IMG/VR virus record: IMGVR_UViG_3300025769_000422
Coordinates: 1 to 34,209 of that record
Source of the DNA: a virus
Taxonomy: Duplodnaviria; Caudoviricetes
Direction: 5' to 3' (one strand)
DNA: 34,209 bases
Shown here: piece by piece, positions 10,074 to 34,209 of the stretch
How the letters are laid out: every line of letters begins with the position of its first letter
Numbering within the stretch: the stretch's first letter is position 1
Notes under the pieces: model-generated
Database searches by the model: none
What the model was told of the DNA's origin: nothing
Seen by the model: the letters and a program-made list of their open reading frames with translations, nothing else
Made by a program: the position numbers and the translations under genes

Positions 10074-10487
10074 ATGAGTGACTTAACAGACGTGCTGCAC
10101 TGGCTGCGACCAAGCAATTGGGCTGGTGTTGAGTCCCACAAGGCAGCACAAACGCTGGTCGTAATCACCGAACTCCAAGCCGAGAACCAGCGGCTGCGGG
10201 AGCGGGCAGAGGAACTGACCAAGTTATGTAGCGACAGACTCTGTCAACGATGGGACGACAACAAAGAGTATCGTGCAGAGATTGATAGGCTGCGGGATGA
10301 GAACCGCGAACTAATCACGGAACGTGACGAGGCAGTCAATTCAGCCTGCGATAACCGCAAGACGTTTGAGCGGGTGATGACCGAGAACACGCGGCTGCGG
10401 GCGGCACTGGTGAAGATCGATGACTGCGTGCCAGCTTCTCTCGTCAGAGAGATCGCACGAGAAGCACTGGAGGTGCAGGGTGAGTGA
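10074..10487 (+). CDS. Coiled-coil hypothetical protein (nin-like region)
   Basis: GGAG upstream of ATG10074; repeated 'ENQRLR/EIDRLR/ENTRLR' heptads. Confidence 0.75.
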   Translation: MSDLTDVLHWLRPSNWAGVESHKAAQTLVVITELQAENQRLRERAEELTKLCSDRLCQRWDDNKEYRAEIDRLRDENRELITERDEAVNSACDNRKTFERVMTENTRLRAALVKIDDCVPASLVREIAREALEVQGE

Positions 10488-13399: not shown

Positions 13400-13702
13400 A
13401 TGCAACGGAACCGCATCAACCCGGACCAGCGAGCCCGCTCGACAGGAATGTTCGAGCCGGATCGGCTGCGTTACCACCTCAGCCAATTGGCTGAGCTGTC
13501 GGCAATCACAGGGCGTCAGTTGGTTCTGGTATACGAATCGCCGTGTTGGCGCGTGGTAGAACTTGACACAAGGGTGTCTGCCGTGGGAATCTCGGCGGAA
13601 CCAGACCCGGCCGATGCAATCAGCAGAGCGGCAAACAGAATTAGACGGATCGAGGAGATTGCGAAGGATGGCAACCACCGAAGCTGCAAGTCCGCAAGCT
13701 GA
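13400..13702 (+). CDS. Hypothetical protein (start uncertain)
   Basis: Open frame filling the gap; protein-like sequence. Confidence 0.5.
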   Translation: MQRNRINPDQRARSTGMFEPDRLRYHLSQLAELSAITGRQLVLVYESPCWRVVELDTRVSAVGISAEPDPADAISRAANRIRRIEEIAKDGNHRSCKSAS

Positions 13703-14858
13703 CACTGACCGACTCGATGAGATTGTTGAAGCGGTCAACCAACTGCTAGATGAGCACGAAACTTTCGTCGCTGGCGATGCTGCATTCCCACCAGAGTCTT
13801 TTGACGTGGCTGTTACAGCGGCGGACATTGCGATTCATTCGGGCGACTGGCCCAAACAGTCGATCAAGATTTGCGTGAAGTTTGGTGCGTTCCTCGAGCA
13901 CTGGAATCGGTATCGCGGCGGGGAGTGGACCCGCGACTACTCACCGCGGCCGCAAGTGTGGTCAGCACTCCGGGATCTGATCGAGGAATTCGAGCTCGTT
14001 CGCAACCCGATCCAGCGGACGATCGAGCCGGTTCATGTGCTGTTGGAGCAGATGAAGGACTTCCCCGGCAGGTACCGTCAGGTGGCCAAGGCGTACGGCT
14101 GGCGAAAGGAAGTGCGACCCGGCCAATTCCGATGGACCGGCCCGTTCTTCGACGGGAACGAGGTCGAGGTGACGTCGCTGATCGAGAAGGAAGCAAAGGA
14201 TCCGGGAAGCGTGGTTCCTGTGGGCTGGCGTCCTGATGACGAGATAGAGCGGGAGAAGCGGAGCCAGGTTGAGAACCAGAACCGCCTTGCGAACGCTCGA
14301 AGACGCTTGAACAACGCGAAAGAGGACGTTGACCCGGCAAGCATCGATGATTTGCTGTTTGAGGGTCAATTCCCGGACGTGATCGCCAAAGTGAAAAAGG
14401 TGGAGATTGGCGAAGTGCTGGCGAGAGCCGAGGCACTAGCAATGAAGCCGAACGACCGAGAGAATCCAGACCCGTGGGTGGACCCGCGGAAGCAATCGCA
14501 GGACGCGAGCAACTTCGGCAGCACGGATGCGCGTCAAAAGCCGGAGTTGCATGCAACAGAGGAGTCTCTACCGAGCGACGTAGTTACGACCGAGGTAGAG
14601 CCCGAGGACGCAACGGACGCCAGCGCCACCGGATCGGCAGGGACGACTCATCCCGATCCGGTGGCATTTTCTCCCGATGCTGAGGAGAAGCTGACGCGCC
14701 GCCAGCGGCAGAAGCGGGACCGCGGTTACATTCAGCAGGCGATCGAGCTTAACCCAGACGCATCCGCCGGCGAGGTGTCGGAGATCATCAAGACGCGGTT
14801 TGGCTGCACTATTTCAACGCGGTCCGTTGCTGGCCATCTCGCCAATATGCGCAACTGA
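13668..14858 (+). CDS. Hypothetical protein with probable C-terminal HTH
   Basis: GAGGAG/AAGG upstream of ATG13668; C-terminal 'NPDASAGEVSEIIKTRFGCTISTRSVAGHL'. Confidence 0.75.
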   Translation: MATTEAASPQADTDRLDEIVEAVNQLLDEHETFVAGDAAFPPESFDVAVTAADIAIHSGDWPKQSIKICVKFGAFLEHWNRYRGGEWTRDYSPRPQVWSALRDLIEEFELVRNPIQRTIEPVHVLLEQMKDFPGRYRQVAKAYGWRKEVRPGQFRWTGPFFDGNEVEVTSLIEKEAKDPGSVVPVGWRPDDEIEREKRSQVENQNRLANARRRLNNAKEDVDPASIDDLLFEGQFPDVIAKVKKVEIGEVLARAEALAMKPNDRENPDPWVDPRKQSQDASNFGSTDARQKPELHATEESLPSDVVTTEVEPEDATDASATGSAGTTHPDPVAFSPDAEEKLTRRQRQKRDRGYIQQAIELNPDASAGEVSEIIKTRFGCTISTRSVAGHLANMRN

Positions 14859-14869
14859 GGGGCGCATCG

Positions 14870-15595
14870 TTGGCGAAGAAAAAAAAAGCTGCCGCCAAGA
14901 TTCCTTCTAAGGCGAACCGCACTGCGAGGGCGAAGAAGGTCACCAAGAAAAAGGTCGAGCAGGTCGCAAGGCAATGCGGCAACCGTGGACGTGGTCTGGG
15001 GCGGAAGTCTTGGAAGCAGCACAAAGCTGACCCCGACGAGGTGGCACCGAGCGATCGAGATTTGCAAATTTACTTGCTCGCTCACGAGGGCATCCACACC
15101 CAAATGGAGATTGCCCGGCAGTTCGAGGTTTCTCGCGGGCGAGTGACGCAGATTCTGACCGCCGTGGGCAACTGGATGCTTCGCCGGCTGACGGACGACA
15201 TTCGCACGGTCAAGCTGGAGAATCACGCGCGGCTGCAAGTTTTGTACGCTGAAGCGTACAAGGGATGGCTTGCCAGCAAGGAGGACGCGGAAGAATCGAC
15301 GGTGACTGAGGGCGGACCGGGCGGCACGGTGACAACCAGCAAGCGGAAGGGGCAAACTGGCAACCCCGCGTTTTTGCGGGAATGCCGCGAGATCTTGGCC
15401 GACATTCGCAAGATCTGGGGAGCTGACGCTCCGATGGAAGTGAAGCACACCGGCGAGATTCGCGTAGCCGGCAAGTCACTGGCGGAGGCAGTGATTGAAA
15501 AGCGGGACCAGCTGAACCGAATCGGCAACGTGCTGTTAAACTCATCAAATTACACAGTGGTGGGCGACGACGATGACGATGGAGCTGTCAAGTGA
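14870..15595 (+). CDS. terS: Terminase small subunit (HTH)
   Basis: HTH 'HTQMEIARQFEVSRGRVTQIL' and tail 'KIWGADAPMEVKHTG'. Lies immediately upstream of TerL. Confidence 0.75.
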   Translation: MAKKKKAAAKIPSKANRTARAKKVTKKKVEQVARQCGNRGRGLGRKSWKQHKADPDEVAPSDRDLQIYLLAHEGIHTQMEIARQFEVSRGRVTQILTAVGNWMLRRLTDDIRTVKLENHARLQVLYAEAYKGWLASKEDAEESTVTEGGPGGTVTTSKRKGQTGNPAFLRECREILADIRKIWGADAPMEVKHTGEIRVAGKSLAEAVIEKRDQLNRIGNVLLNSSNYTVVGDDDDDGAVK

Positions 15596-17087
15596 AGACC
15601 AAGCACTGCTACACGCGGACTTGCCGGCTTACCTGACCTACCGGCCACGGCCGGACCAGCCGGACCGCTTCGACGAGCAGACCAGCTTTTATGAGTCGCA
15701 AAGCACGGGGGTCATCTTCCACTTGGGCGGGAATGGAAGCGGGACTACCGAAAACACGCTGGCGAAAGTGGCCAAGTTCGTTCTACGGGAACAGCAGCCG
15801 CCGCGGCGTGATACACCATTCTGGATTATCGCAGGCTCGTACGAGCAGGTGATGGAAGCCTGTTGGGCGGAAAAGCTGTACGGACGTGGCCACATACCAA
15901 GCAGCGAAGTCGACTGGCCTCGAGTGGTCTGGAAGTCCAGCAAGTCGAACTGGCCGTACCGAGTGCCGCTAAAACCGTGGCCCGGCACACCCGACAAGAA
16001 CTGGTGCCTTGAGTTCAAATCTTACGAACAGGGCCGGCAGCAGTTCCAAGCTCGAGCTATCGGGGGATTTGCATTCATCGAACAGATGCCGTACGTGCTG
16101 CTGAACGAAGTTCTGCGCGGATGCCGAGAATACAACTTTCCGGGCTCGAAGCTGGTTGAGCAAACGCCGATCGATCCGCATTTGAGTTACGAGATTCAGA
16201 ACATGATCGAAACCGACGCACTCCCCCCAAGCTGGGAAGTGTGGCGGGCAAACACTCAGTGCAACCTCGAAGCGGGCTACATCACGCAAGAATGGTTTGA
16301 GCAGTTCTACGGATCGATCCCGGAGGAGATGCTTGAGACCCGGATGACGGGGGCGTTTGCTTCCTATGAGGGGCTGATCTACTCAACCTTTTTCCCGCGG
16401 ATGCACGTAGCTGGCGATGACGTCATAGACTTTCCTCCGGGAGTGTACCATTACCGCGCAATTGACTGGGGAGCAGGTCCACACAACCCGTTTGCGTGCA
16501 TCTGGGGCTACAAAAACGGAGTTGGTGAACACTTCATTTACGACGAGTATTACAGCACCAACCAGACTAAGACGACGATCGACCACCTATGCGAAGTGCA
16601 GGACCGGTGGCCATGGCCGGGGAACAACCCGTACTTCTCGAGCACATTCGCCGACCCGGCGAGCCCCGATAACATCCGGATCGCTCAGAAGCTGGCGCAG
16701 TACACGAATGACGAGTACGAAAACATTCAGGGCATGATGCGAGGCTCGAACGCCGTCCTCGAGGGGATAGAGCACGTTCAGTTCCTGCTGAAAAAGAACG
16801 AAGCGACCGGACGACCGCGGCTAGTGATCCATGAAAGCTGCGTCAACCTGATTCGAGAAATGCGAACCTACAGCTGGGAGCGAGCGAGCGACCAAGGACT
16901 CAACCCGCGAGACGCGGCCAAAAGGCCGTTAAAGAAGGACGACCACCTCTGCGATGCGCTGCGATACCTCGTTTTCTCGCTGGCACAGATGGAAGGCACT
17001 AGCGTACAAGAGAGCATCAGGAGACCCGTGCGGAGCCGTCATGGTGTCAGGTTTCATCAGCCGGACGCAGTGGAGAGGCTCACCTAA
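15573..17087 (+). CDS. terL: Terminase large subunit
   Basis: The RNase H-like nuclease has 'AIDWG', 'FADPA' and 'DDHLCDALRY'. The ATPase has 'GGNGSGTT' and 'FKSYEQGR..FQ', but its Walker motifs are atypical. Confidence 0.92.
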   Translation: MTMELSSEDQALLHADLPAYLTYRPRPDQPDRFDEQTSFYESQSTGVIFHLGGNGSGTTENTLAKVAKFVLREQQPPRRDTPFWIIAGSYEQVMEACWAEKLYGRGHIPSSEVDWPRVVWKSSKSNWPYRVPLKPWPGTPDKNWCLEFKSYEQGRQQFQARAIGGFAFIEQMPYVLLNEVLRGCREYNFPGSKLVEQTPIDPHLSYEIQNMIETDALPPSWEVWRANTQCNLEAGYITQEWFEQFYGSIPEEMLETRMTGAFASYEGLIYSTFFPRMHVAGDDVIDFPPGVYHYRAIDWGAGPHNPFACIWGYKNGVGEHFIYDEYYSTNQTKTTIDHLCEVQDRWPWPGNNPYFSSTFADPASPDNIRIAQKLAQYTNDEYENIQGMMRGSNAVLEGIEHVQFLLKKNEATGRPRLVIHESCVNLIREMRTYSWERASDQGLNPRDAAKRPLKKDDHLCDALRYLVFSLAQMEGTSVQESIRRPVRSRHGVRFHQPDAVERLT

Positions 17088-17110
17088 CCATTAGTAGGCG
17101 GTTTGCAACA

Positions 17111-18283
17111 ATGGGCAAGCAACGGCTGAGCCAGAGCGCGATAGCGCGGTATGGGCGTCAAAAGTTCGATGAGGCACAGAAGCAAGCGCGACGCGACTGG
17201 GAACGGTCAACGGTGGGTTCGGCAGTCCTGGACGTGGCGAGAATGGGGCGGAGCGTTCTGAGCCGGAGAACTCCTACCAGCAGAGCCAAGCGAGCGGTAA
17301 ACCGACTGAGCAAGTTTGCCACAAGCGGCGGAATGGGCGACGTCATTGCGAGTACCAAAGTCGGCAGCCAAGTGATGAAACTGGCGCGATTGGGCGACGT
17401 TGACAAGTACAGCAGCGGTCTCGTCGAGCAGATGGTAGGCAGCGTTCTATCGAGCATGTTTGGACCGCTAGGCGGAAGTCTCGCGCAGATCGTGTTTGCG
17501 AGCGACGACGCCGCGCAGGACGCGGGGCTCAATGATCCGGGTAGAGATCCAGGCGTAGAAGATTCGTTACGGGCGGCGCTTGAGTTCATCAACCTTGTCG
17601 ACCCGAAGCTATTGAGCGGGAAGGGCAAGGAAACGCTGACGGGCACACCGGAGGCGGCGGGACTACAGCGGGCACCGGATGACGGAACTTATCTTCAAGC
17701 ATCGCCAGTAATCAGAGGCCGGGAAGGGTTCTATGTCACCACGTACGAGGGCGGGCGGATGATGACATACCCGCGCACCGATCCGATGGTGACGGGTGAA
17801 ATGATTCCAGTGCAGAGCTCAAATGTCCATTCGATCGGATTTATTTACGACTTTGACAACACGCTGAACGGTGTTCTCAAGGTTCGATTCTTGCAGGGCA
17901 AGCGGTCAGACCGGAGACAGAAGATCGCCGGCCCGCTCTATTTCTACTACAACGTCGAACCGAAACTGTTCCGCGAGTTCCGCAAGGCAATCAGCGCGGG
18001 TGTCTTTGTCTGGGACAACTTGCGTGTGCGTGGTACAGTTTCAGGTCACCAGAAGCCATACGAGCTGAAGGGGGTCGCAGAGGGCTACGTCCCGAGAAAG
18101 GCGACTCGATACGGCGGAAACGAATACTATATTCAGCGGCAGATCAACGTCCGGCATACCCGGACGGGCAGCCGGCGTACGATTTCGAGCGAGAAGCCGG
18201 ACCGACTTGTCCAGCCATACCCGGACCGAGGAACGCCCGGACGCGGAGCACCGAACCGCGGGCGACCGAATCGAGGACGCTAA
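17111..18283 (+). CDS. KTSC-domain protein
   Basis: 'MIPVQSSNVHSIG...LKVRF...YFYYNVEPKLFREFRKAISAGVFVWDNLR' matches KTSC. C-terminal PxRG repeats. Confidence 0.75.
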   Translation: MGKQRLSQSAIARYGRQKFDEAQKQARRDWERSTVGSAVLDVARMGRSVLSRRTPTSRAKRAVNRLSKFATSGGMGDVIASTKVGSQVMKLARLGDVDKYSSGLVEQMVGSVLSSMFGPLGGSLAQIVFASDDAAQDAGLNDPGRDPGVEDSLRAALEFINLVDPKLLSGKGKETLTGTPEAAGLQRAPDDGTYLQASPVIRGREGFYVTTYEGGRMMTYPRTDPMVTGEMIPVQSSNVHSIGFIYDFDNTLNGVLKVRFLQGKRSDRRQKIAGPLYFYYNVEPKLFREFRKAISAGVFVWDNLRVRGTVSGHQKPYELKGVAEGYVPRKATRYGGNEYYIQRQINVRHTRTGSRRTISSEKPDRLVQPYPDRGTPGRGAPNRGRPNRGR

Positions 18284-18286
18284 TAC

Positions 18287-21200
18287 ATGCTGACCACGGA
18301 TGAGAAAAGCGAGTTGCACAACGAGTTCACCGCCCGAGCACAGGGCCGCAATCGTCCGCCGGAATTCATCCAGCGGGTGATCGACGAGAAGGAAGCCGGG
18401 ATCATGGACCCGGCGACCGAGTCACCCGGTGTTGCACCCAACTTCGGCCAGTACGCGCTGCCGCATCTGTTGACGTACCAGAGCCTGCACGGCACGTACA
18501 GTCGCGTCTACAAAGCCAGTGACGAGGCGATCAAGCACAGCATCGAGAACTCGCGATTCATGCGAAACGATGTTGGCATCATGGAGTGCGTAGAGGCACG
18601 GCAGCGGGCAACGGCGCTTCTGGACTGGCACATCGAGCCGGAGGACGACAACAGCCAGAGCCAGAAAGACCTATGCACCGAGCTGACGAAGATCATGAGC
18701 CGGATACGTCGCTTCACCGAGTATCGCAACAACCTTCTGCATGCCATCTGGTACGGCAAGTATGCGGTGCAGAACCGATACGGCTGGCAAAACATCGGCG
18801 GGGCGATGCGAGTGATGCCGACCCCGCTACGTGAGAACTACGGCTGGCAGCCGATCAACGGTGACAAGCTGGTATTTCGCTATGACGATGGCCAGCTGGA
18901 CCCGACTCGACCAATCCATCAGCTGGGGGTGCGTGTCGGACATCGGAAGCAGATCGGCACCAAAATCAACAAGCGGTGGGAAGTCGAGCCGACTGGGCAC
19001 GGGCTGGCTTACTTCCTTAGTGAGTACGAGCGACGTTCGTTGGTTGTTCACAAGCATCTAATCGAGGACGGAGCGTACGAGGATAACTGGGGCGGCGAGC
19101 AGATCCACGGCGTGGGTGTTCGGTCGCGCATCTACTGGGACTGGTTCCAGAAGCAGGAGACTTTATCGTTCCTGATGGAGTACCTCGAGCGATCCGCAGG
19201 CGGAATCGAGATTTGGAGCTATCCGGCCGGCGACAAGGGCGCACTGGAAGCGGCGAAAAGTGCAGCCACCGACCGAATCAGCAACCAGCGGAACGTCGTG
19301 TTCTTCCCGAAACCCATGGGCGACGAGGGCGCCATGTATGACGTGCAGGTGATCGAGCCAGGTATGTCGGGAATCGAGAGCCTGAAGGACATCGTGACCA
19401 ACTATTTCGGCCACCGAGCGAAGCGGTACATTCTCGGCCAGACGTTGAGCACAGAGGCGGATGCCACCGGGCTAGGCTCAGGCGTGGCGGAGCTCCACTA
19501 CAACTCCTTCTTGATGATCGTGAAATACGACGCGGTCAACCTCGAGGAGACGATTACGCGCGACCTGCTCCGACCGTTGCAGGAATGGAACTTTCCGAAG
19601 TCCAAAGGCATTGCTCTGCAATTCAAGATCGAGACCGAGTCTCCGGACGTGGAGAAGCGACTCGAGGCATATCAGGCGGCGTGGAGCATGGGCGCGAGTC
19701 TGAGCGAATCAGACGTCATGGACATGATCGGTGCGAGCGTGCCAACCGACAACGAAAGCGTGCTGAAGAATCCACAACTTGACCCGGAAGCACAGCAGGG
19801 AATGGACCCGATGGGCGGCATGGGCGGCGGAATGCCGGGCATGGCCCCCATGGGTGGAATCCCGCAGGACGGCGACGGTGACGGGATCGCAGGCGATGGA
19901 ACGTCACAAGCTACGGCTGTTGGCTTTAGTGGTGTCGACCAAATGAAAACGGACGCGATCGACAGCATGTATAACGACCCGGAAACGGCCGCGGGCGGCG
20001 ACGTGACGTACGTGAACGAAGGCGGCGAGTACCAGACTCGCGAGATGCCGGAGTTTGACACGGGTGACCGCAAGCCCGAGGGCAAGGTGGAGCGGTTCGA
20101 GCGGGATGGCGACGTCGACCTGTATCGACAGCAGATTGACAGCGCCGGGACGTCACTCAACCAGGTGCCTGCATTGTTCAAGCGAGTGCAGAAGGCCGGC
20201 GGATTCAAGCCGAACTCAATCAACCTGGACTATGGCGGCGGCAAGTACGACAAGGGAACCGAGTTCCTGAAACAGCTGGGCGTGAACAACCTGGTGCTAG
20301 ATCCCTTCAACCGATCAGGCGACCACAACCAGGCCGTTGTCGCAGCGATCAAGAAAGCCGGCGGCGCTCCGACTGCGACCATGGCGAACGTGCTGAACGT
20401 CATCGCCGAGCAGGAGGAACAGATCAAGGCACTCCAGAACGCCAAGTCGCTGCTGGCACCGGGCGGAATGCTGTATATCGACGTCCACGAGGGCGACGGC
20501 AGCGGCCAGGGCAAAGCGACGAGCCGCGGATTTCAGCAGAATGCGAAGCTCGACGCCTACCTGCCGATGGTGCAGAAGGTGTTCGGCCAGGCAGCGAAAG
20601 AGGGCGGTGTGATCGTGGCGACGACTCAGGCCCAGGGGAACGCTGCCTACAGCCGGATGGCCTACAACCTGGGCGAAGTCGAGCGATACGAAAAGCAACT
20701 GACGTTCGATTTCGGCAGCAAGGACGACGGCGAGTGGAAGACGATCAACGGCAGCCACGTGTACGTCGAGGGCGGCGAGATTACCAAAGGTCCGCCGGAT
20801 CTGTTGGGCAGGGGTGGCGACGGCCGGAAGGAGGACAGGCCGAAGCCGTTGGGAAAAAACCGACCCGGTGGGCGAAGCGAATTCAAGCCCGCCGGGGATT
20901 CACCGTCCGATGAGCTGCCAGCTGAGTTCGGCGCAATTGATTTGCCGATCCTCAACAACGCTCCGACAGGCGGCGATCCTCCAGAGGCCAGCACCGGGAA
21001 TGCGGTCAAGCTGCATCCGATCAAGTCCTACGACAAGGTTCTGGTCCAGTTCTCAGGCGGCAAGGACTCACTGGCGGCGGTGCTCGATCTGATCGACCGC
21101 GGAGTCGACCCGAAGAAAATCGAGCTCTGGCACCAGCGGATTGACGGCGACGGTGAGCGGTTCATGGACTGGCCAGTGACCGAAGACTACGTGCGAGCGA

Positions 21201-24200
21201 TCGCCGACCATCTGGGCGTCAAGCTCCGGATGCAGTGGCGTGAGGGCGGATTCAAGCGGGAGCTGGAGCGCCACAAGGAACGCACGCAAGGTGTGTGGTT
21301 CGAGGATGAGAACGGCAAGCGGAAGTTTCTGCCGACCACGAAAGGCGGCGAGACGACCCGCGAGAAGTGGCCCGCCAAGTCATGCGATCTGGGGAAACGG
21401 TGGTGCAGCGCTACGCTGAAGATCGACGTAGCGGCGCGGAGCATAACGAACGATCCGAGCCTGAAGGGCGACAAGCTGCTGTTCGTCAGCGGCGAGCGGC
21501 GCGAGGAAGGCGGCCGGCGGTCCAAGTACCTCGAGAGCGAGAAGCACCGGACCCACAACAAAAGCCGGACGAACCATCATTACAGACCCGTCCTGGATTG
21601 GTCCGAACAGCAAGTGTGGGACAAGATCAAAGAGCACGGGATCAACCCGCACCCAGCGTATCGCCTGGGCTACAACCGGCTGAGCTGTCAGCACTGCATC
21701 TTCGCCGACCCGGACCAGGTCGCGAGTAACCAGGAGCTAGACCCGAACGCGGTAGAGAAGCTGGCGGAGATGGAGGACAAGCTAGGCCACACCATCAGCG
21801 CCACCCCGAAGGGCGAAGGGGTCAGCATCCGCGACTGGGCGAAACAGGGCGTCAGTTTTGTCACTGACTCCCCGGACGAGCTCAAGAAGCTCGCGATGAG
21901 CACCGAGTTTACCGAGCCGATCCACGTCGGCGATGACTGGGAAATGCCGAAGGGGGCGATGAAAAAGGGCCAGGGAGCGCCCGCGAACTACGCGCGGATG
22001 GGCTACACCTGGGCGGACGTCGACCGTTATTGGCGATTTGACCGGATGGTCCGCGACTTGTACAGGGCGCAGTTCAACGAGGGCGATCATCCGCGGGACC
22101 AGGACGGCCAGTTCACGAGCGGAGCGGAGACCGCGCGTGCAATGGACGTCCCTGCGACTGAGCTCAATCGCGACGTTCACAGCCTGTTAAAAGGCACGGA
22201 GGGGTGGGTTCGTCCGGTTGAGCTCTTTCGCCAGTACAAAGGCAAGGCGAAGCTGTTGGACTTCATCAAGGAAGTGAAGACGGCCGCGTCCGAGGGCGAG
22301 GTAGAAACCAAGGGCAAGGGCGACAAGTTCCAGGTGCGCCGGATCGATACCGAGAGCAGCCTGATCAGTGACACGAATCGCCGGCTGGCAGGTCACAAGG
22401 TCGAGTACAACCCGCGGCAGATGACGTTGTTTCGGAAGCCAGGACGACCAGAGCCCTATCGACGGGTGAAGGATCGAAAAGGTCAGGGCACGTTCGACTG
22501 GAACGAGGAGGATCACCCCAGGGGGCAACCCGGCAACGCTGGCCAATTCGCCAGCAAGGAGGGCGGCGGGAGCGCGGAAGCCCCAGAAGCTCCAGAGGAG
22601 CGGAAGCCACAGGCAGAGGACAACTGGAGCGGTCCAGTTATTCAGTCGCCAGCGTTCAAGCAGTGGTTCGGCGACTGGGAGAACGACCCGCAGAACTCCT
22701 CAAAGGTAGTCGACGAGAACGGCGAGCCTGAGCAGCAGCACAGCATGGTGGTGGACGAGAACGGACAGCCGAAGAAAGCCTATCACGGCACGTCACACGG
22801 CGGATGGGACACATTCGAGCCACGTTTCGGACAGGCATCCGCAGGAGGGATTTCGGATCACCTGCTGTACGGGCCGGGGTTCTACTTCACAGAGGACAGG
22901 GGCATTGCCGAGGAATACACCCAGATTGCGAGAGAGCCTGAATACTCGCTCGCGATGGATGAGGACGCGGCCAACGCAAAGCTGCGCGATCGGGTGGAGG
23001 CAGTCGCAGAAGCATCCGACGATGAAATGCTGATCGAGGAGGCGGGCGACGTCATGCGGGACATTGATTCCGGGCGTTATGGCGTCCACAGGATGGTTGG
23101 CAAGAGCAAGAGCCAGCACGACTATTTTGCATCGACGTTCGGCATCGATGTCAGCGATCTGTTTGAGGAAAAGGACGATTCGGAGGTCAAGGAACTCTAT
23201 CTCAACATTCGGAAGCCGTTCGACGCTGACAATGACCGGATCCCGGCAAGCCCGGCAATGAGAGAAACGCTCGAGCGTTACATTCGCGAGTCAGAGGAAC
23301 AAGGGCATATGTCTGAGGCTAACGAATGGCGGGAGAAACTGAGGGAAGGGTACACGTATCAGGAAGCACTGGGTTTCAAGCCGACGAAAGAAGCCTTGAA
23401 CGAATACCTGAAGGAACTGGGCTACGACGGCATCACACACATCGGCGGGCGGCACATGGGGAGCCGTGACCATCAGGTCTGGATCGCGTTTCAGCCGAAC
23501 CAGATCAAGAGCACCGACAATCGCGGCACGTTCGATCCGAATGACAACCGGATGAACTACCGCAAGGTGAAGGATCGAAGAGGACAGCAGGCGTTCGACT
23601 GGGACGAGTCAGCACACCCCAGGGATGAAGACGGCAAGTTCGCCACGAGTGACAAGCCGAGTGACACGAAAAGCGCGAGTGACACGGAGATCGGCGGCAT
23701 TAAAAGCAGCGGAAGCGAACTTGGTGATGAGGCAACGATGGCCATCAGCGAGCTTTCGGAGGAAGCGGTATTGTCTGCCGTTCAGACCGACGGGTTCAAC
23801 GAAGCGGCGGTGCGTTCTGTGCAAGCACACACCAAGACGGTTGTTGGCCGGATGAATGCCGCGTGCAGGATGAAGATTGCCAACAACCTCGAGAGGATCA
23901 AATACGCGCCCGACCTGAACGAGTTGACCCGCCAATACAACTTTTTCAACCTTGCTAACCGTCGACTGGGATCGATCGGCGGATTCTATATGTTCGATGA
24001 GCAATGGCTGTTCCTGAACGGTGCGTTTGATGAGTACACCGAGTTCGGGAAGGGCGAAGCGAAAGACACAGCCGAAGGTATCCAGGCTCACGAGTTCGCG
24101 CATGCGATTGACGGCCCGAAGTCCGTCTACAGCAATATGGTCGAGTGGAAGACGGCATATCTTAGCGAAATCTGGGCGGCGAAGTCGCAGGATGCTCCGT

Positions 24201-24364
24201 TGACGCGATACGCCACAACAGACGCATCTGAAGGATTCGCCGAGTTCGGCCGATTGCTGTTTAGCGAAACGGAATACTTACAGGCTGCGGGGCGAGAAAC
24301 GATACGGGCGACCTTTCCGAAGTGCTACAAGTTCTGGCTAGACATGGGGCTTATCGATGACTGA
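18287..24364 (+). CDS. Portal (DUF935/Mu gp29-like) fused to SAM methyltransferase, PAPS-reductase-like, ADP-ribosyltransferase-like (ART-PolyVal type) and zincin metallopeptidase domains
   Basis: Portal ~18287-19790 (ILGQTLSTE..GLGSGVAELH); MTase ~20130-20620 (LDYGGG, DPFN, NVLNV); PAPS reductase ~21030-21960 (FSGGKDS, RWCS..LK, GERREE, RLSCQHC); ART ~22640-23555 (YHGT, GFYF, GYDG, QIKS); peptidase ~23740-24360 (HEFAH...YA...EGFAE). Confidence 0.88.
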   Translation: MLTTDEKSELHNEFTARAQGRNRPPEFIQRVIDEKEAGIMDPATESPGVAPNFGQYALPHLLTYQSLHGTYSRVYKASDEAIKHSIENSRFMRNDVGIMECVEARQRATALLDWHIEPEDDNSQSQKDLCTELTKIMSRIRRFTEYRNNLLHAIWYGKYAVQNRYGWQNIGGAMRVMPTPLRENYGWQPINGDKLVFRYDDGQLDPTRPIHQLGVRVGHRKQIGTKINKRWEVEPTGHGLAYFLSEYERRSLVVHKHLIEDGAYEDNWGGEQIHGVGVRSRIYWDWFQKQETLSFLMEYLERSAGGIEIWSYPAGDKGALEAAKSAATDRISNQRNVVFFPKPMGDEGAMYDVQVIEPGMSGIESLKDIVTNYFGHRAKRYILGQTLSTEADATGLGSGVAELHYNSFLMIVKYDAVNLEETITRDLLRPLQEWNFPKSKGIALQFKIETESPDVEKRLEAYQAAWSMGASLSESDVMDMIGASVPTDNESVLKNPQLDPEAQQGMDPMGGMGGGMPGMAPMGGIPQDGDGDGIAGDGTSQATAVGFSGVDQMKTDAIDSMYNDPETAAGGDVTYVNEGGEYQTREMPEFDTGDRKPEGKVERFERDGDVDLYRQQIDSAGTSLNQVPALFKRVQKAGGFKPNSINLDYGGGKYDKGTEFLKQLGVNNLVLDPFNRSGDHNQAVVAAIKKAGGAPTATMANVLNVIAEQEEQIKALQNAKSLLAPGGMLYIDVHEGDGSGQGKATSRGFQQNAKLDAYLPMVQKVFGQAAKEGGVIVATTQAQGNAAYSRMAYNLGEVERYEKQLTFDFGSKDDGEWKTINGSHVYVEGGEITKGPPDLLGRGGDGRKEDRPKPLGKNRPGGRSEFKPAGDSPSDELPAEFGAIDLPILNNAPTGGDPPEASTGNAVKLHPIKSYDKVLVQFSGGKDSLAAVLDLIDRGVDPKKIELWHQRIDGDGERFMDWPVTEDYVRAIADHLGVKLRMQWREGGFKRELERHKERTQGVWFEDENGKRKFLPTTKGGETTREKWPAKSCDLGKRWCSATLKIDVAARSITNDPSLKGDKLLFVSGERREEGGRRSKYLESEKHRTHNKSRTNHHYRPVLDWSEQQVWDKIKEHGINPHPAYRLGYNRLSCQHCIFADPDQVASNQELDPNAVEKLAEMEDKLGHTISATPKGEGVSIRDWAKQGVSFVTDSPDELKKLAMSTEFTEPIHVGDDWEMPKGAMKKGQGAPANYARMGYTWADVDRYWRFDRMVRDLYRAQFNEGDHPRDQDGQFTSGAETARAMDVPATELNRDVHSLLKGTEGWVRPVELFRQYKGKAKLLDFIKEVKTAASEGEVETKGKGDKFQVRRIDTESSLISDTNRRLAGHKVEYNPRQMTLFRKPGRPEPYRRVKDRKGQGTFDWNEEDHPRGQPGNAGQFASKEGGGSAEAPEAPEERKPQAEDNWSGPVIQSPAFKQWFGDWENDPQNSSKVVDENGEPEQQHSMVVDENGQPKKAYHGTSHGGWDTFEPRFGQASAGGISDHLLYGPGFYFTEDRGIAEEYTQIAREPEYSLAMDEDAANAKLRDRVEAVAEASDDEMLIEEAGDVMRDIDSGRYGVHRMVGKSKSQHDYFASTFGIDVSDLFEEKDDSEVKELYLNIRKPFDADNDRIPASPAMRETLERYIRESEEQGHMSEANEWREKLREGYTYQEALGFKPTKEALNEYLKELGYDGITHIGGRHMGSRDHQVWIAFQPNQIKSTDNRGTFDPNDNRMNYRKVKDRRGQQAFDWDESAHPRDEDGKFATSDKPSDTKSASDTEIGGIKSSGSELGDEATMAISELSEEAVLSAVQTDGFNEAAVRSVQAHTKTVVGRMNAACRMKIANNLERIKYAPDLNELTRQYNFFNLANRRLGSIGGFYMFDEQWLFLNGAFDEYTEFGKGEAKDTAEGIQAHEFAHAIDGPKSVYSNMVEWKTAYLSEIWAAKSQDAPLTRYATTDASEGFAEFGRLLFSETEYLQAAGRETIRATFPKCYKFWLDMGLIDD

Positions 24365-25412
24365 CAGGCAACTGATACCAGAGCTGTTCGGCGAGAGTAT
24401 CAATACGGACGGCAGCCACGCGGATGTACTGTTAGGTCAGGGCGAGGAAGAGGAACCGCACGCATCAAATACGCAGGCCGGCGGTCTGTACGGCGACGTT
24501 CTGCTCACACCAGACGAGCGTGAGAAGTACGCGCGGCAGATATCACTGTTCAACGAGGAAGACCATCCGCGCGACGATTCCGGGAGATTTACCAGCGGCG
24601 GAGGCCGATCGAAGTCAGCGAAGCCGGTCAAGCCGTTCCACCCATTGAAGGGCGAAGGCGGGAAGCTGCACCCGAAGCGGAAACCGAACAAGGAAGCGTC
24701 TGAATACCACGGAGTCGAAAAGCTGAACTCTCCCGGGAATCTGCCGGCGGTGTTCCTGACTGGGGTGAGCAACAAGAAGACACGCGAGGCGGCGAAGGAT
24801 AGGCCGGGGCTGGGCGTCCTGATCACCCCGAATACTGGGCAGTACGTGAACCACGTGAACGATTACAGCGCGTTCGCAGTGGACAACGGTTGTTACTCCG
24901 AGCACACCGGCAAATGCGAATTTAAGCCGGCGGAGTTCCGGAAGCTGCTGAAGGATCTGAAGCCGGAAGCACACAAGGCGATGTTTGTGACTGCTCCGGA
25001 TGTTGTGGGCGACTGGGAAGCGACGAGGAAACGGAGCGAGCCGTGGCTGGGTGAGATTCGCGAGGCGGGTTTTCCGGTAGCCTGGGTGGCTCAGAACGGC
25101 ATCGAGAACAACCAAGGCGAAATTCCCTGGGACGATTTCGACGTCCTGTTCATCGGCGGAAGCACCGAATGGAAGCGGGGTTTCGATTCCAAGGGCGGCA
25201 CGAACTCCGAGTTCGTCAAGATGCTCAAGGAAGCACACAAGCGAAAGAAACCGGTACACTTTGGTCGCATCAACAGCTGGAAATCGCTCGACACGGTGGG
25301 CTACGGCCTGGGAGCCTCGAGCGTGGACGGGACGTATCTGGCATTCGGCCCAGAGAAGAACCTACCGAAGCTGCTCGATTGGGTGGATAGCGAGACCGCA
25401 ACGCGATACTAG
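24357..25412 (+). CDS. tRNA-guanine transglycosylase (TGT/DpdA)-like TIM-barrel protein with N-terminal HPR tag
   Basis: 'AVDNGCY', 'PDVVGDWEAT', 'VAQNG', 'FIGGSTEWK', 'HFGRIN' and 'SVDGT' follow the TGT-superfamily motif order. Confidence 0.6.
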   Translation: MTDRQLIPELFGESINTDGSHADVLLGQGEEEEPHASNTQAGGLYGDVLLTPDEREKYARQISLFNEEDHPRDDSGRFTSGGGRSKSAKPVKPFHPLKGEGGKLHPKRKPNKEASEYHGVEKLNSPGNLPAVFLTGVSNKKTREAAKDRPGLGVLITPNTGQYVNHVNDYSAFAVDNGCYSEHTGKCEFKPAEFRKLLKDLKPEAHKAMFVTAPDVVGDWEATRKRSEPWLGEIREAGFPVAWVAQNGIENNQGEIPWDDFDVLFIGGSTEWKRGFDSKGGTNSEFVKMLKEAHKRKKPVHFGRINSWKSLDTVGYGLGASSVDGTYLAFGPEKNLPKLLDWVDSETATRY

Positions 25413-25420
25413 GGCGAAGA

Positions 25421-28400
25421 ATGAACATTCAGCAGATCAACGAAGCGGTTGAACGTGCGGTCTACGAAAAGGTCCACGGGTGGAGTGAGGACGACCATCC
25501 GCGTGCCGATGACGGCAAGTTCACCAGCGGCAGCGGTTCGGTCGAGGGCGGCCAGGCAGAGCCCAAGAATCCGAAGTTCGTCGACCCGGGGCAGTTTGCC
25601 ACGTTCGAGGAATACACCGACTTCCTGTCCGACAAGCTGGGGCGCTCGATATTCGGTGTGTCTGGCGGCAACCGGGCGAAGCTGATGGACAACTGGCACA
25701 AGGCCCAGGCTGAGAAACGCGGCGACGATTACGAGTTGCCGGACTGGATCGCAGACATGTCGGAGAATCATTCCGCCGGCGACGTCAGCGACTGGGCAAA
25801 GGACATGATAGCGAACCGCGGATTCGACGAGACCGAAGTGCGCGGAGCACTCGAGGAATCGAGCGACCTGAAAGTTGATCCAACCAAGCACGACGACCTA
25901 TACAGCCTGGGCCATTACATCGAATCGCTCGACGATGAGGACGAGCGGCCGGTTCAGCGGGAGCTATTCGGCCGTTACCGATCGCTCGAGCACGCCACCC
26001 AGAGCGCCAACCCTGCGCTGCGACTGATGGCAGCGAAGCAGATGCGGTACAGCCTGGTCCATTCAGGCGGACACTGGCGGGATCTGGACCGACTCGATGG
26101 AATCATTGAGGAAGCGGTCGACCACGGGCGTAGAATGGCAACACTGGCCAACAGCGAAGCCGGCCAGGCTGTGCTTGACCACTACCTGGACGAAGCTGTC
26201 GCAGTGATGCACCAGCTGGAGCCAGAGCGGGAGATGTACCGCAAGGTTAAGAGCCGACCAGGCCAGAAAAGCCTGTTCGATGAGGACACTGTCGAACGCC
26301 ATCCAGCCGGCAGCCCCGAGGGCGGCCGATTCGCTCCCAAGGGCAGCGGCAAGAAGGGGAAGAAAGATGCGAAGTCGAGCAGCAAAAAGCGAGTGGGGAA
26401 GAAGACTCGAAAACCACGTACGCGAAAACTTCCCGACGGAGTGGGCGAAGATGAGCGAGGATCAGCGCAACGACTTTTTGACTGGGGTAGTGACTCAGGC
26501 GGAGAACGACGTGGTGCTGATGATTCGGCAGGGGATGCTGCCAGCAGAGGCGAGGGCACAGGCACGGGCGGAGATGTTCCCGAGACCGGAAGAAAGCGAC
26601 GACGAAACACTCTGAACGTCATGAGCTCCACCGATTGGAGCTACAAAGACAACTCCTTCGTTGAGGGCGGCAAGAAGGCCAAGTTTCAGCACAATATCGA
26701 AGCGATCAAGGTTCTGAACCAGATCGAAGCCGAGGGACGCGACCGCGCGACCGTCGATGAGCAGGAAGTGCTGTCTAAGTTCAACGGCTGGGGCCAGTAC
26801 CCGCAGGTATTCGACCCATACCCGCGGCCAGAGTGGAAGGCCGAAGCGGAGCAACTCGAGAGCCTTCTGGGTGAAGCACAATTCAAGCAGGAAGCGAGAG
26901 AGTCCCGCGACAACCGCAAGAGCGCCGGCCGCGCTACGCTCAACAGCCACTTCACCGACCCAGCCGTGGTCGATGCGCACTGGAAAGCTGCCCAGCGGCT
27001 GGGTTTCAAAGGCGGTCGATTCCTCGAGCCGTCCATCGGATCGGGCCACTATGTCGGCCTGATGCCGGAAGAGCTCCGCAAGAATACGGCTGTGACTGGC
27101 GTAGAGCTGGACACGACAACGGCCCGCGTTGCTTCGATGCTGTACCCGTCGGTCAACATTCAGAATCAAGGTTTCGAGAAGTTCAGCGCGCCGGACGGGT
27201 TCTACGATCTGGCTGCTTCCAACGTCCCGTTCGGTGACTACCGACTGAGCGAGCGACGTTACAACCGTCTGCGCCCGTACATCCACGACCACTTCTTTCT
27301 GAAGACGATCGACAAGGTGAAGCCGGGCGGTCTGGTGATGCACGTGACCAGCACGGGCACGATGGACAAGAAGAACGACAAGATCCGCAAGAACATGGCG
27401 AAAAATGCGGATCTAGTCGGCGCCTTTCGGATGCCATCAGGGGCGCACGGGCAATCGGCCGGGACCGCTGTTGTGACCGACATGCTGATCTTCAGGAAGC
27501 GGGACGAACACGGGGCAGCACCGGAGCACAACCCGAAGGAGGTTCTGGACCAGCTGAAACCGGGTTTCACGGGAGTCCTGACCGACAGTCTGGGGCGGGT
27601 GTACCACTTCGTTGACGGTAAGCGGGTTCCGGCTGACTACTGGACCGAGATAGGATCAGTTCCCGACCCAGAGGGCGGCGAAGACATTCCAGTCAACAAA
27701 TACTTCCAGCACAACCCGGACCAGATCCTTGGCCAGATCGGATGGACAGGAACGCTCTACGGCGGTCACGAGATGGGCGTGCAGTCGACTGGTGACCTGA
27801 CCGAGATGCTAGACGCTGCGATCAACCGGTTGCCAGAGAACATCATGAGCGACCGCCAGCCGGAAAATCTGGACGCATACGAACCAGAGGCGCAGCCAGG
27901 TGCAGAAGATGAGCGGGACGGGAACCTCGTAGTCGATGGCGATGAGGTGTTTCAGAAGGTGGGCAACATTCGCGTCAAGGTGGATCTGAACGCAAAGCAG
28001 GCGGCGATCATCAAAGACGCCGCGGACGTCCGTTCTGGCGTGCGTGACCTGATGCGAGCCGACTTGGCTGGCGAAGACGCGGACGAGATGCGGCAAAAGC
28101 TGAGCGTCTCGTACGACATGTTTGTGGACACTCACGGCCCGTTGCACAGTCCGGCCAACTTGCGAGCGATGGCTCAAGATCCAGACCTGCCTGTAATGCT
28201 GGCGCTCGAGGATTGGGACGCGAAGACAAAGACGGCCACCAAGGCGGAGATTTTCGAGAAGCCGACGGTTCGGCCGCACGTGGAGCCGACCACCGCGGAC
28301 AATGTGATTGATGCGTACGGGATCAGTCTCGCACAGCGGGGCAACATCGACCCTGACTACATGGCACAACTGACAGGGCTACGTCTGGAGGATGTCGAGG

Positions 28401-31400
28401 ACGAGATGCGCAAGTCCGGACTGGCGTTTGAAGATCCTTCGGACGGCTGGACCGAACGCGGGTCGTACTTGTCTGGAGACGTTAAGGACAAGCTGGCGAT
28501 TGCTCGAGCAGCGGCAGAAGCCGACGAGCGATACAAGGTGAACGTGGAAGCACTCGAAGCGGTTCAGCCGAAGGACATCGCATACGACGACATCGGCGTG
28601 AGAATGGGGAGCCCGTGGATTCCACCGAGCGACGTTGAGCAGTGGCTCAGCGACACAATTGGCGGACGTCCGGACGTGTTCAAGATCGAGTACAGTCCAG
28701 AGCTGGGCCAGTGGTCTGTCGACATGGCTCGAGGTGAGGCCAACGCATGGTTGCCGCATGACCACAAGCTGGAGGTGGGTGGCTTCAAGTGGAAGCGAGT
28801 AGTTGACGCGGCGCTGAACTCGAAGACGCTGACGGTGTGGGGTGAGGACAGCAAAGGGAACCGATACGTTGACGTCGACGCGACCGATGCGGCCCGCGAA
28901 AAGGTGGCGGAGGTAAAAGAGCAGTTTGCCGAATGGGTCTGGGAAGACTCCGACCGCCGCGAACGACTCGCGCGAGCGTACAACGACGAGTACAACAACA
29001 CGGTCCCGGCCAACTATGACGGCAGCTATCTCGACTTCCCAGGGATGACTCCAGCGTGGAATCTTCGCGAACCGCAGGCCAACTTCGTCGCACAGGTGAT
29101 CAGCCGGGGTAAAGGGTTTTTGGCTCACGAGGTGGGAATCGGCAAGACGGCGGCGATGGTCGCGAGTGCGATGGAGCTGCGCCGGCTGAGGCTGGCAAAC
29201 AAGCCGGCAATCGTGGTCCCGAAAGCCACACTCGATCAGATGGAGCTCGACGCACGGGAGCTCTACCCGGGTGCGAAGATCCTCAGCACGAGCGGCAAGT
29301 TCGGTGCGACGGAACGTAAAGAGTGGATCAGCAAGATGGCGACCGGCGACTGGGACATGGTCATTATGAGCCACGAGCAGATGAAGTATCTGCCGATGGA
29401 GCGTGATACCGAAGCCAGGTTCTTGCAACAGGAGCTCGACGACCTCGACAGTGCGATGGAGTTCCGCAGGGCGCAGGACGGCAAGGGGATGCGTTCCGAC
29501 ACGCGGCAGGTCAAGGCCATGGAAAAGGCCCGAATGAAACTCGAGGCCCGAATCAAGGACGTCACAGAGGGCAAGCGGGACGACGCCTTGACGTTCGAGC
29601 AGAGCGGCATTGACCAGCTGTTCGTCGATGAAGCGCACGCATTCAAAAACCTGCAAGTCAACACAAGTCTGAAGGGGACCAAGGGCATCCCGACCGCGGC
29701 CAGTCAGCGGGCGCTTGACATGTATATGAAGACGCAGTGGATGCTGGACAACCACGACAACCGCGGAGTGGTGTTTGCGTCTGGTACACCGATCAGCAAT
29801 ACAATGGCTGAGGTCTACAACATCCAGCGGTACCTGCAACCGGACGAGCTCGAGAAGCGTGGCTTGAAACACTTCGACAGCTGGGCGAAGGCATTCGGCG
29901 ACAGCGAGACCACGACCGAGCCGAATCTAGCGGGCGAGTACAAAGACGTTACGCGGTTCACCAAGTTCCAGAACGTACCAGAGCTGATGCAGATGCTACA
30001 GCAGGATCTGGACGTGCGGACGGTCGACGCCTTCAACGAATACAAGCGCGGCGGTGACCCCGACGTAGCCGACGCGATCAAGCGACCGAAGCGGATCGAC
30101 TCGGTCTACGTCCAGCCGGCAAACGACACGACGCAGGCGGTGATGGACGAGATCGCCCTGCGGGCTCGCAACATTCCGAAGCGGCCGGGCAAGGGTGACG
30201 ACAACATGGTCAGCCTCACGACGCTCGCGCGGCAGGCTGCTGTTGATCCACGTCTGTACGACCCGAATGCCGAGGACCGTCCAGATTCCAAAGTCAACAC
30301 GATGGTGGCGAACGTGCTGGCCACATACCACAACCCGGAGAAAGCCGGCAAGACACAGCTGATCTTCTCCGACATCGGGGTAAACCCGTCCAATTCAACC
30401 GGGTTCCACCTGTACGGAGACATCATCGACAAGCTGGTGGCTGGTGGCATTCCGCGCGAGGAGATCGCCGACTATAGCAAGTTGACCGACCTGCAAAAAA
30501 AGACGGTCAGCGCGGAGCTGAAGTCTGGCAAGCGCCGCATCGGCATCGGTTCGTCCAAGAAGCTGGGCACAGGAACCAACGTGCAGACGCATCTGGCGGA
30601 GATGCACAACTTAGACGTTCCGTACGTTCCGACCGAGAACACGCAGCGAGACGGCCGCGGCTACCGTCAGGGCAATCTGAACGACGAGGTGAAGATCTGG
30701 CGGTACGTGTCGGAAGGGTCCGCGGATGAAATCAGCTGGGGCATCGTGGGCCGGAAGCAGGGGTTCATCAACCAGACAGTCACTGACAAAGGTTCGGATT
30801 TACAGCGGGAAGTAACTGAGGAAGACGCCGAGTCGTTCACACCGCAGCAGTTGCAAGCGGCCGCGGCTGGAGACACTCGGATCTTGGATCAGGTGACCTA
30901 TAGCCGAAACCTCAAGAAGTTGGAGCGATCAAAGAAACGTCACACGCGAGAGCAGAGGGAGCTGGTTGCTGGTGTCGCAAAAGCACGAGAGCAGGCGGAG
31001 GTACTCAAATCGGAAGCCACCCGGATGGCTGACGACCATGCGGCTGGCGAAGCTCGAGCGGAGCAAAAGTTGCGGATTGAGGGTGCGGCGACTGATGCGA
31101 AAGCGGCCGACCAGCAGAAGCAGATGGACGCGCTACGCGACAAGGCAGATGAGATCTGGGCATCGATTCCCACGTATCGCCGAACGATTCCGCGGTACGC
31201 TGAGTCGGCGCGGATAAGGGTGGGCGAAGTCCGCGGTATGCCTCTGTACCGATTTGCAGGCAACTTCTACCTCGAGGGCGCGAGCGGTCAGCATTACACC
31301 ACGGGTGAGACGACGCGGTCCGTTGACTACGTGGCCCGCAACCTTGGGAAGCGTGCGGACGACAAACGCCAGCAGGCGAAGATGCACGAGGAATCCGCAG

Positions 31401-33707: not shown

Positions 33708-34209
33708 ATGGTATCCAAGCGGTTCAAGTACCTGCGACCACGGCCGAGTGTTGAAACTGGCGGTCCAAAGCCAGAATTCCAGACAGGGTGGCCGTGCCCA
33801 ACCAACATGGCTCCGTTTACTGTGACAATCACATGGTCGGAGCCTGTCAATGGTTTTGATTTGAGCGATCTTCAGCTCACCAACTGCACTGCTGCAAATT
33901 TCACTGAAGTGACGCCGAACTTGGTCTACACTGTAGATCTGACGCCAGCCGCAGAAGGCCAGTTTTGTTTTGCGATTCCGAAGGACTCGGTGACTGCGGT
34001 GGCAGACCCATTGCAGGGGAACGGTTACAAACAATTCTGTTGCGTGTACGACATCACCGATCCAACGGTGGTGGTCTCGGGTCCTGCTGCGGGCATCCAA
34101 TCTGTTCCTCACGACGTTACGATCACATTCGACGAAGCTGTGACCGGACTGGTCATCGGTGACCTCACAGTGACCGGTGCTTCCGCAGATGCTTTGACAG
34201 GCTCGGGGG
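33708..34209 (+). CDS. Ig-like (bacterial Big-type) repeat protein, 3'-truncated; missing from the ORF track
   Basis: ATG33708 follows GGAG and has no stop before the window end. It reads 'FTVTITWSEPVNGFDLSDLQLTN...YTVDLTP' and a second repeat 'VTITFDEAVTGLVIGDLTVTG'. Confidence 0.85.
   Translation, partial: MVSKRFKYLRPRPSVETGGPKPEFQTGWPCPTNMAPFTVTITWSEPVNGFDLSDLQLTNCTAANFTEVTPNLVYTVDLTPAAEGQFCFAIPKDSVTAVADPLQGNGYKQFCCVYDITDPTVVVSGPAAGIQSVPHDVTITFDEAVTGLVIGDLTVTGASADALTGSG

Follow-up and report, generated by a model that had tools for sequence, protein, structure and literature searches.

A 2025-residue portal–cargo protein of an uncultured phage as a candidate polyprotein with tyrosine-marked joints

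How could a phage deliver enzymes that are fused to its portal, a protein that stays in the virion? This question is raised by an open reading frame (ORF) of 2025 amino acids (aa) on the plus strand, positions 18287–24364, of a 34,209-nucleotide stretch of caudoviricete DNA (IMG/VR record IMGVR_UViG_3300025769_000422; the whole stretch is referred to as the window). A preliminary description had read the ORF as a portal carrying four enzymes and had proposed that the fusion fixes up to 12 copies of each enzyme per virion for injection. Loading of up to 12 copies is reasonable to expect, but enzymes fixed to a head-retained portal cannot be injected; because the portal stays in the virion, delivery needs at least one cut. 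That picture is incomplete, since a recurring Tyr motif, two N-terminal tags and peptides resembling sliding-clamp motifs point to separate proteins. We propose, with a probability of roughly 0.65, that the ORF encodes a polyprotein that is cut by the prohead protease and whose pieces are delivered separately.

The portal–cargo frame and its modules

The modules follow each other in the order Mu-type portal, S-adenosylmethionine (SAM) methyltransferase, 3′-phosphoadenosine-5′-phosphosulfate (PAPS) reductase-like domain, winged helix, ADP-ribosyltransferase (ART-PolyVal) and zincin. Scores of Tyr sites are those of the scaffold-trained profile described below.

18287..24364, plus strand: 2025-aa portal–cargo ORF (open frame; identical protein in L019–L021)
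18560..19732, plus strand: Mu-type portal core (PF06074, aa 92–482; E 8e-37; phrog_113)
19733..20125, plus strand: low-complexity linker, ending in the candidate first sites ERF604ER (4.7, Phe) and DLY613RQ (−0.7, weak)
20126..20632, plus strand: class I SAM methyltransferase module (library match, short homologs)
20648..20689, plus strand: tandem Tyr sites AAY788SR (2.8) and ERY801EK (4.5)
20696..20791, plus strand: QLTFDF peptide and hairpin-like tag W-x-T-I...V...G-x-I-x-K-G
21029..21982, plus strand: PAPS-reductase-like PP-loop module (SGGKDS at aa 923, RWC at aa 1038, SCxxC at aa 1133)
21989..22114, plus strand: Tyr sites Y1235, Y1248 and Y1259 and first HPR...G-x-F tag
22142..22351, plus strand: predicted winged-helix domain (structure model)
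22418..22432, plus strand: QMTLF, a peptide resembling a sliding-clamp motif, closing the winged-helix module (motif; complex model)
22457..22549, plus strand: Tyr site EPY1391RR and second HPR tag
22634..23557, plus strand: ART-PolyVal module of ADP-ribosyltransferase fold (YHGT at aa 1499)
23558..23641, plus strand: Tyr site MNY1758RK and third HPR tag
23834..24361, plus strand: zincin-like metallopeptidase module (HEFAH at 24089, aa 1935)

The ORF is a single open frame with no stops, and the identical protein was recovered from three further metagenome assemblies (L019, L020 and L021). In runs X1 and X2, one unbroken contig each spans the junctions and covers 17000–26000 with no differing letters and no gaps. 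The frame is uninterrupted, as the preliminary description had it, with no hidden stops, and the portal–cargo ORF is confirmed as real. The assemblies may have samples in common and are not fully independent; X1 and X2 are possibly the source of the window DNA and do not count as independent support. Shared samples, and a 916-aa record (P0297) that has only the C-terminal part and begins inside the PAPS-like domain, would speak for an assembly artefact or for separate genes read through. Against the identical 2025 aa in L019–L021, the single contigs in two runs and 269 long homologs, that explanation is hardly credible. L020 aligns with the window from 10171 on and its bases 1–643 do not match, so that it is a variant or chimera diverging near window position 10170.

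The N-terminus is a true portal, as had been assumed: it matches PF06074 with 127.8 bits (cut-off 23.9) over profile positions 7–335 of 336, and its placement is that of the Mu type, with the large terminase subunit (TerL) upstream in the window and, in relatives, protease and capsid genes following the portal. The preliminary description was also right on the train of cargo, which is of polyvalent type. The library match of the methyltransferase is weak (PF13489, E 8.7e-6, 26 bits against a cut-off of 27); 26 short homologs (23 aligned) keep its glycine-rich SAM motif, and these start at aa 610–619 in 12 cases and end at aa 775–784 in 23. The NPP(Y/F) signature of the DNA adenine methyltransferases of polyvalent proteins was not found: the module has no NPPY/DPPY motif and an invariant NVLNV in the alignment instead. 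Among sequences of solved structures it matched only small-molecule methyltransferases, and these weakly (best E 0.009). The PAPS_reduct match covers aa 918–1138 (E 1.5e-12) and indicates membership of the superfamily only, the scores for DndC (TIGR03183, 33 bits against 290) and for PAPS reductase proper (CysH; TIGR02057, 23 against 254) being far under the cut-offs. For this reason the idea of a Dnd mimic composed of methyltransferase and DndC-like enzyme was rejected.

The region at about 22130–22400, formerly a small unknown domain, was modelled as a winged helix with a predicted local distance difference test score (pLDDT) of 66; its best Z, 8.6, is tied with other winged helices. Among longer proteins its only homolog was a partial record of this protein (proteins of near its length were not searched); none was found among the proteins gathered in this analysis, a lone blast overlap with P0098 not being confirmed by alignment. 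The ART-PolyVal profile matches with E 1e-16 and 72.8 bits (cut-off 31.2). The catalytic triad of these enzymes is H-Y-E; the His is kept here, and the third position, judged by eye, is Val, whereas one of the 11 aligned homologs has Glu there. The zincin carries HEFAH, and its family matches are all sub-threshold (ATLF 0.0088, M90 0.056). No MuF family match was found with Pfam and PHROGs among the 25 window ORFs scanned, the 2025-aa ORF included. The reported absence of a separate MuF gene thus holds for the window and need not hold for the phage as a whole, because the window ends at 34209 without detectable head protease or capsid genes (tblastn best E 0.77) and the genome is incomplete.

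Judged from the sequences compared, portal–cargo fusion is ordinary for this clade and it is the module set that is particular. The portal is carried by 269 proteins of 1113–3544 aa; the 120 listed long homologs and the query form 69 groups at 75% portal identity. Their cargo, scanned in 21 of the 69 groups and in two locus portals, includes InPase, LPD1, LPD3, ART, 2H, SNF2, Strawberry-notch helicase and topoisomerase IB. Several unrelated effector domains, variable order and late-gene context are thus found, as in polyvalent proteins. The comparison of C-terminal cargo that the preliminary description had called for showed that cargo is swapped: the ART is shared by 7 of the 120 listed homologs, the zincin by 3 and the methyltransferase or PAPS-like domain by none. 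The combination that it did not recognise is absent as a set from these homologs, whereas the fusion as such is the norm and is already in print (PMC5512222, PMC9503650). Close portals without cargo (484–518 aa; L006, L014, L042, L053) also exist.

Among genome-bin loci with this portal, 10 of 11 belong to Planctomycetota, which makes this the likely host phylum and suggests planctomycete bacteria as hosts of the phage. The closest portals of cultured phages are just 23–30% identical. At several loci (L009–L017, L025) the portal lies amid cellular genes of Schlesneria and other planctomycete bins, some with a terminase and several without a nearby protease or capsid; these are possible remnants or domesticated head genes.

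Tyrosine motif, tags and the head protease of relatives

The joints between the modules share the motif x-[R/K]-Y-[A/S]-[K/R/A], in which the aromatic residue is nearly always Tyr, and in four of the five modules a tag of the form HPR...G-x-F or W-x-T-I...G-x-I-x-K-G stands behind the joint. For scoring, a four-position profile was trained solely on 245 Tyr from 23 scaffolds of relatives. It passes 53% of these training Tyr, 4% of 74 protease-domain, 3% of 1243 portal-core, 9% of 2090 portal-tail and 4% of 250 capsid Tyr. In the 69 non-redundant portal fusions, a profile match lies at most 30 aa upstream of 45 of the 75 HPR tags (shuffled expectation 3.6; downstream 1) and of 13 of the 22 W-I-T-I tags (expected 0.9; downstream 1). 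Any Tyr at all is found upstream of 72 HPR tags and downstream of 19. A test that makes no use of tags gave a site near 78 of 357 shared-module ends compared with 27 at random.

The natural ends of stand-alone homologs lie 3–8 residues ahead of the motifs. Stand-alone methyltransferases end at a median of aa 780, the site being Y788, and stand-alone PAPS-like homologs at a median of aa 1232 (115 of 150 at 1230–1234), the site being Y1235. All 11 aligned ART homologs have an aromatic terminal residue at the position of Y1758, a Tyr in 10 of them. The 176 methyltransferase and PAPS-like homologs contain a single tag in total. Phe replaces Tyr in some scaffold motifs (K-F-S-R; L002 6544–8370, L008 14856–16736), so that the protease pocket may accept both residues; several portals have His (R-H-A-K).

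The candidate protease was characterized in relatives, from 26 distinct sequences of which 24 were aligned and 23 used for training, truncated ones and near-duplicates being dropped. The protease domain closes with a sequence of the type E-K-Y-S-A and is followed by the motif-rich scaffold; His58, Ser116 and the terminal Tyr162 are invariant in all 24. The best folds for the model (pLDDT 84) were T4 gp21 (Z 6.8, root-mean-square deviation 4.1, 114 aligned) and the proteases of varicella-zoster virus (6.5) and human cytomegalovirus (5.0), and in BFVD it matches a phage capsid maturation protease (E 9.9e-6). Three of the 24 match the PHROG head maturation protease. A search of solved-structure sequences with the protease alignment gave no match, no Foldseek hit in PDB reached E 0.001, herpesvirus proteases being among the highest-ranked rows, and none of the cultured phages matched the protease. 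In relatives, then, a gp21/assemblin-type fold with conserved His and Ser is found, and the motif is common to the protease end, the scaffold and the candidate substrates. This comparison lends good support to the putative cut-site code.

Alternatively, the zincin at the C-terminus of the chain may do the cutting, either ahead of packaging, inside the head or once the host has been entered. The HEFAH motif is present in the chain, and a processing role of zincins was proposed for polyvalent proteins by Iyer et al. 2017 (PMC5512222). However, 38 of the 69 portal fusions have no HExxH, and tags are equally motif-marked in chains without it (25/39) and with it (20/36); moreover, the motif also occurs at the end of the head protease and throughout the scaffolds. 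Autoproteolysis is therefore very unlikely.

The motif might also be a binding or assembly signal for scaffold, capsid or chaperone, the train of modules either staying tethered as an inner core, as the preliminary description implies, or being cut once and leaving unfolded as a single chain. Such a role would fit the many motifs that, in scaffolds and in cargo leaders, stand at the end of a short helical segment, the virion RNA polymerase of N4, which is packaged unprocessed (PMC5512222), and the approximately 80% of head proteins in SPN3US which remain uncut (PMC10052503). It is at odds with an invariant Tyr exactly at the protease–scaffold border, where such proteases release themselves, and with sites placed just beyond the natural ends of the stand-alone homologs. 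We consider it unlikely.

Clamp-like peptides, predicted processing and neighbouring genes

Peptides of the form Q-x-x-[L/M/F]-[F/W], which resembles sliding-clamp motifs, number 82 in the 69 tails, where 18 were expected; the portal cores have one and 10 other window ORFs none. Their rates per 1000 aa are 1.39 in portal tails, 0.65 in cargo-zone genes and 0.22 and 0.14 elsewhere. Solved structures include many clamp–peptide complexes. When a 34-aa stretch around QMTLF was modelled on a planctomycete clamp, the score was 0.70 and that of the best control 0.00; the mark for complex models is reached by 116 of 157 solved pairs and by 2 of 215 mismatched pairs. The runs agreed in at least 76% of contacts with a partner pLDDT of at least 47, and placed aa 1377–1382 on clamp residues 171–176, 245–250 and 362–369. 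Planctomycete genome G030 has five sliding-clamp matches, on different contigs.

The distribution of these peptides also bears on a further explanation, in which the tail is cut and most modules never reach the next host, being disposable, active in the producing cell, or selfish hitch-hikers that are tolerated because the tail comes off. Propeptides mostly leave the head (PMC10052503), the cargo-free portals mentioned above exist, and the ART appears to be without the canonical Glu in third position. On the other hand, the cargo belongs to families known from injected polyvalent proteins, tags and clamp-like peptides are concentrated in portal tails and cargo genes, and pieces of 15–49 kDa would be large for capsid pores. 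Loss of the modules in this way is quite unlikely.

Several observations weigh against separate release and delivery of the modules. Only the scaffold-trained profile is free of hindsight, the first regular expression having been written after examples had been seen. At the portal–methyltransferase joint, the weakest of all, there is only the weak Tyr (−0.7) next to the Phe variant (4.7), and a passing site at aa 490–640 is present in only 33 of 69 portals (5.6 expected). Two of the seven passing Tyr in the ORF sit within domains (aa 462 and 1665), DnaB has one passing Tyr (score 5.4), and the 2761-aa neighbour described below is not enriched (3 of 73 Tyr pass), though its three tags each follow a Tyr. 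In the three cultured phages compared, ART ends are mixed, with Phe in an unrelated cyanophage and no aromatic residue in Tunturi_5; the aromatic residue at the ART joint may reflect a wider habit. The link to the protease depends on relatives whose portals are 46–65% identical, the phage's own protease lying outside the window, and the fold Z values are all under 8. The modelled clamp comes from a planctomycete genome bin and serves as a substitute, and the complex model indicates likeness, on which a pair of textbook type can pass.

Portals are dodecamers whose C-termini lie inside the head. In the processing that we favour, the starting point is what the sequence shows: a single frame encodes portal and modules, and the joints bear motif and tag. 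Twelve chains would then assemble as in other portals with their C-terminal tails within the prohead; each tail is 158 kDa, and twelve amount to approximately 1.9 MDa of cargo. A protease of gp21/assemblin fold would cut within x-[R/K]-Y-[A/S]-[K/R/A]; the cut most likely lies behind the Tyr, a side that we guess from proteases cutting after the key residue of their motif (SPN3US gp245, PMC10052503). The predicted pieces are the portal (~69 kDa), methyltransferase (~18 kDa), PAPS-like protein (~49 kDa), winged helix (~15 kDa), ART (~42 kDa) and zincin (~30 kDa), and through this one motif a single protease would act on the scaffold, on itself, on the portal tail and on the products of separate cargo genes. 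A short tag would stand at the start of four of the five pieces and probably keeps them in the head or directs them to ejection. More speculatively, QxxLF may dock some pieces on the sliding clamp of the host, the enzymes acting there early against host defences or on DNA. From the class of cargo they might act in counter-defence or nucleic-acid modification at entry.

Should the motif be the cut site, it is the head protease, and not the zincin proposed in print, that separates multi-enzyme polyvalent proteins; it would be a head protease with Tyr specificity, and the mature virion cargo would become predictable across hundreds of uncultured phages. Only tentatively can this be extended to a large clade of uncultured planctomycete phages. 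There the portal tail might serve as a programmable cargo cassette, the modules being freed by a Tyr-specific head protease, routed for ejection by the hairpin tag and targeted to the host clamp by the clamp peptides, and here the PAPS-like enzyme and an unusual methyltransferase could modify nucleic acid on entry. If so, the injected proteome could be read from sequence.

The window contains genes for replication and recombination, a terminase and a KTSC-like gene; the 2025-aa ORF follows, and then an ORF of 351 aa and a DarB-like gene of 2761 aa. Scans for promoters and terminators remained at or below chance. The neighbours of the 2025-aa ORF are:

15573..17087, plus strand: terminase large subunit (library profile matches)
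17111..18283, plus strand: KTSC-like gene between terminase and portal (profile match; look-alikes in the same position in L001, L002 and L004–L006)
24357..25412, plus strand: 351-aa separate cargo gene with leader, EKY58AR site (score 6.0), QISLF, HPR tag and phrog_15826 domain
25421..33706, plus strand: 2761-aa polyvalent protein of DarB-like methylase-SNF2 type; a Tyr precedes each of its tags (HPR twice, W-I-T-I once)

The KTSC-like gene ends in repeated P-x-R-G units, an ending shared by the look-alikes in L001, L002 and L004. The 351-aa protein holds the best-scoring site, its nearest named Atlas cluster is DUF6610 (score 0.91), and it is possibly a partner of the PAPS-like domain. In separate cargo genes, including this one and those of several loci of relatives, a short leader precedes the first site and looks like a targeting propeptide. 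In the 2761-aa protein, aa 2355–2651 (window 32483–33373) match phrog_21, labelled 'portal protein', at profile positions 1024–1312; this is probably a cargo domain fused to portals of that family and not a second portal. An Ig-like (Big_12) ORF at 33708–34208 directly follows the cargo genes and runs off the contig end. For the last window ORF no relative was found among the viral contigs searched. Upstream of the terminase genes lies a 431-aa ORF (13563–14858); L001, L003 and L008 have apparent look-alikes, judged by eye, in the corresponding position.

Comparison with known systems

Phage Mu gpH, which belongs to the same portal family (PF06074) as the N-terminus of the ORF, is processed at its C-terminus; an account of this was not found in the literature searched. 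In that literature (titles and the beginnings of abstracts, with thin coverage of subscription journals) no description of a Tyr-specific prohead protease or of clamp motifs on virion cargo was found either. Cleavage of portal proteins occurs elsewhere: the lambda connector is cleaved (PMC3185693), and so is the SPN3US portal (PMC10052503).

Iyer et al. 2017 (PMC5512222) and 2022 (PMC9503650) described portal or MuF proteins fused to 2H, PBECR, Nudix or ART and proposed that such fusions are packaged and injected. The genes described here resemble these phage-type polyvalent proteins in their late-gene context and in their cargo of ART, zincin, methylase-SNF2, InPase, LPD and 2H. They differ from those in PMC5512222, for which a zincin is the proposed processing enzyme, in that five modules on one portal share a delimiter. 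The words 'PAPS', 'clamp', 'linker' and 'planctomyc' do not occur in the main text of that paper. Like the MuF-toxin and portal–MuF fusions, for example those of Microbacterium phages (PMC7302621), the ORF joins a head protein to an ADP-ribosyltransferase, the portal there being fused to another head protein. Unlike MuF toxins, it has no MuF domain match in Pfam or PHROGs and carries several cargos instead of one. QMTLF and QISLF fit the form of the bacterial β-clamp motif QL[S/D]LF (consensus as quoted in PMC11417375), whereas the family consensus here is G-Q-[K/Q/G/R]-[S/G/D]-L-F.

The closest parallels in processing are T4 gp21 and SPN3US gp245 (PMC10052503). As in those systems, a protease of the same fold (here in relatives) occurs together with a single short motif that protease, scaffold, portal and ejection proteins have in common, and the protease there removes its own C-terminal part, where the border motif stands here. 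In contrast to gp245, which cleaves behind Glu and takes off propeptides at the N-terminus (PMC10052503), the motif described here is centred on Tyr, and the portal would lose a C-terminal train of enzymes.

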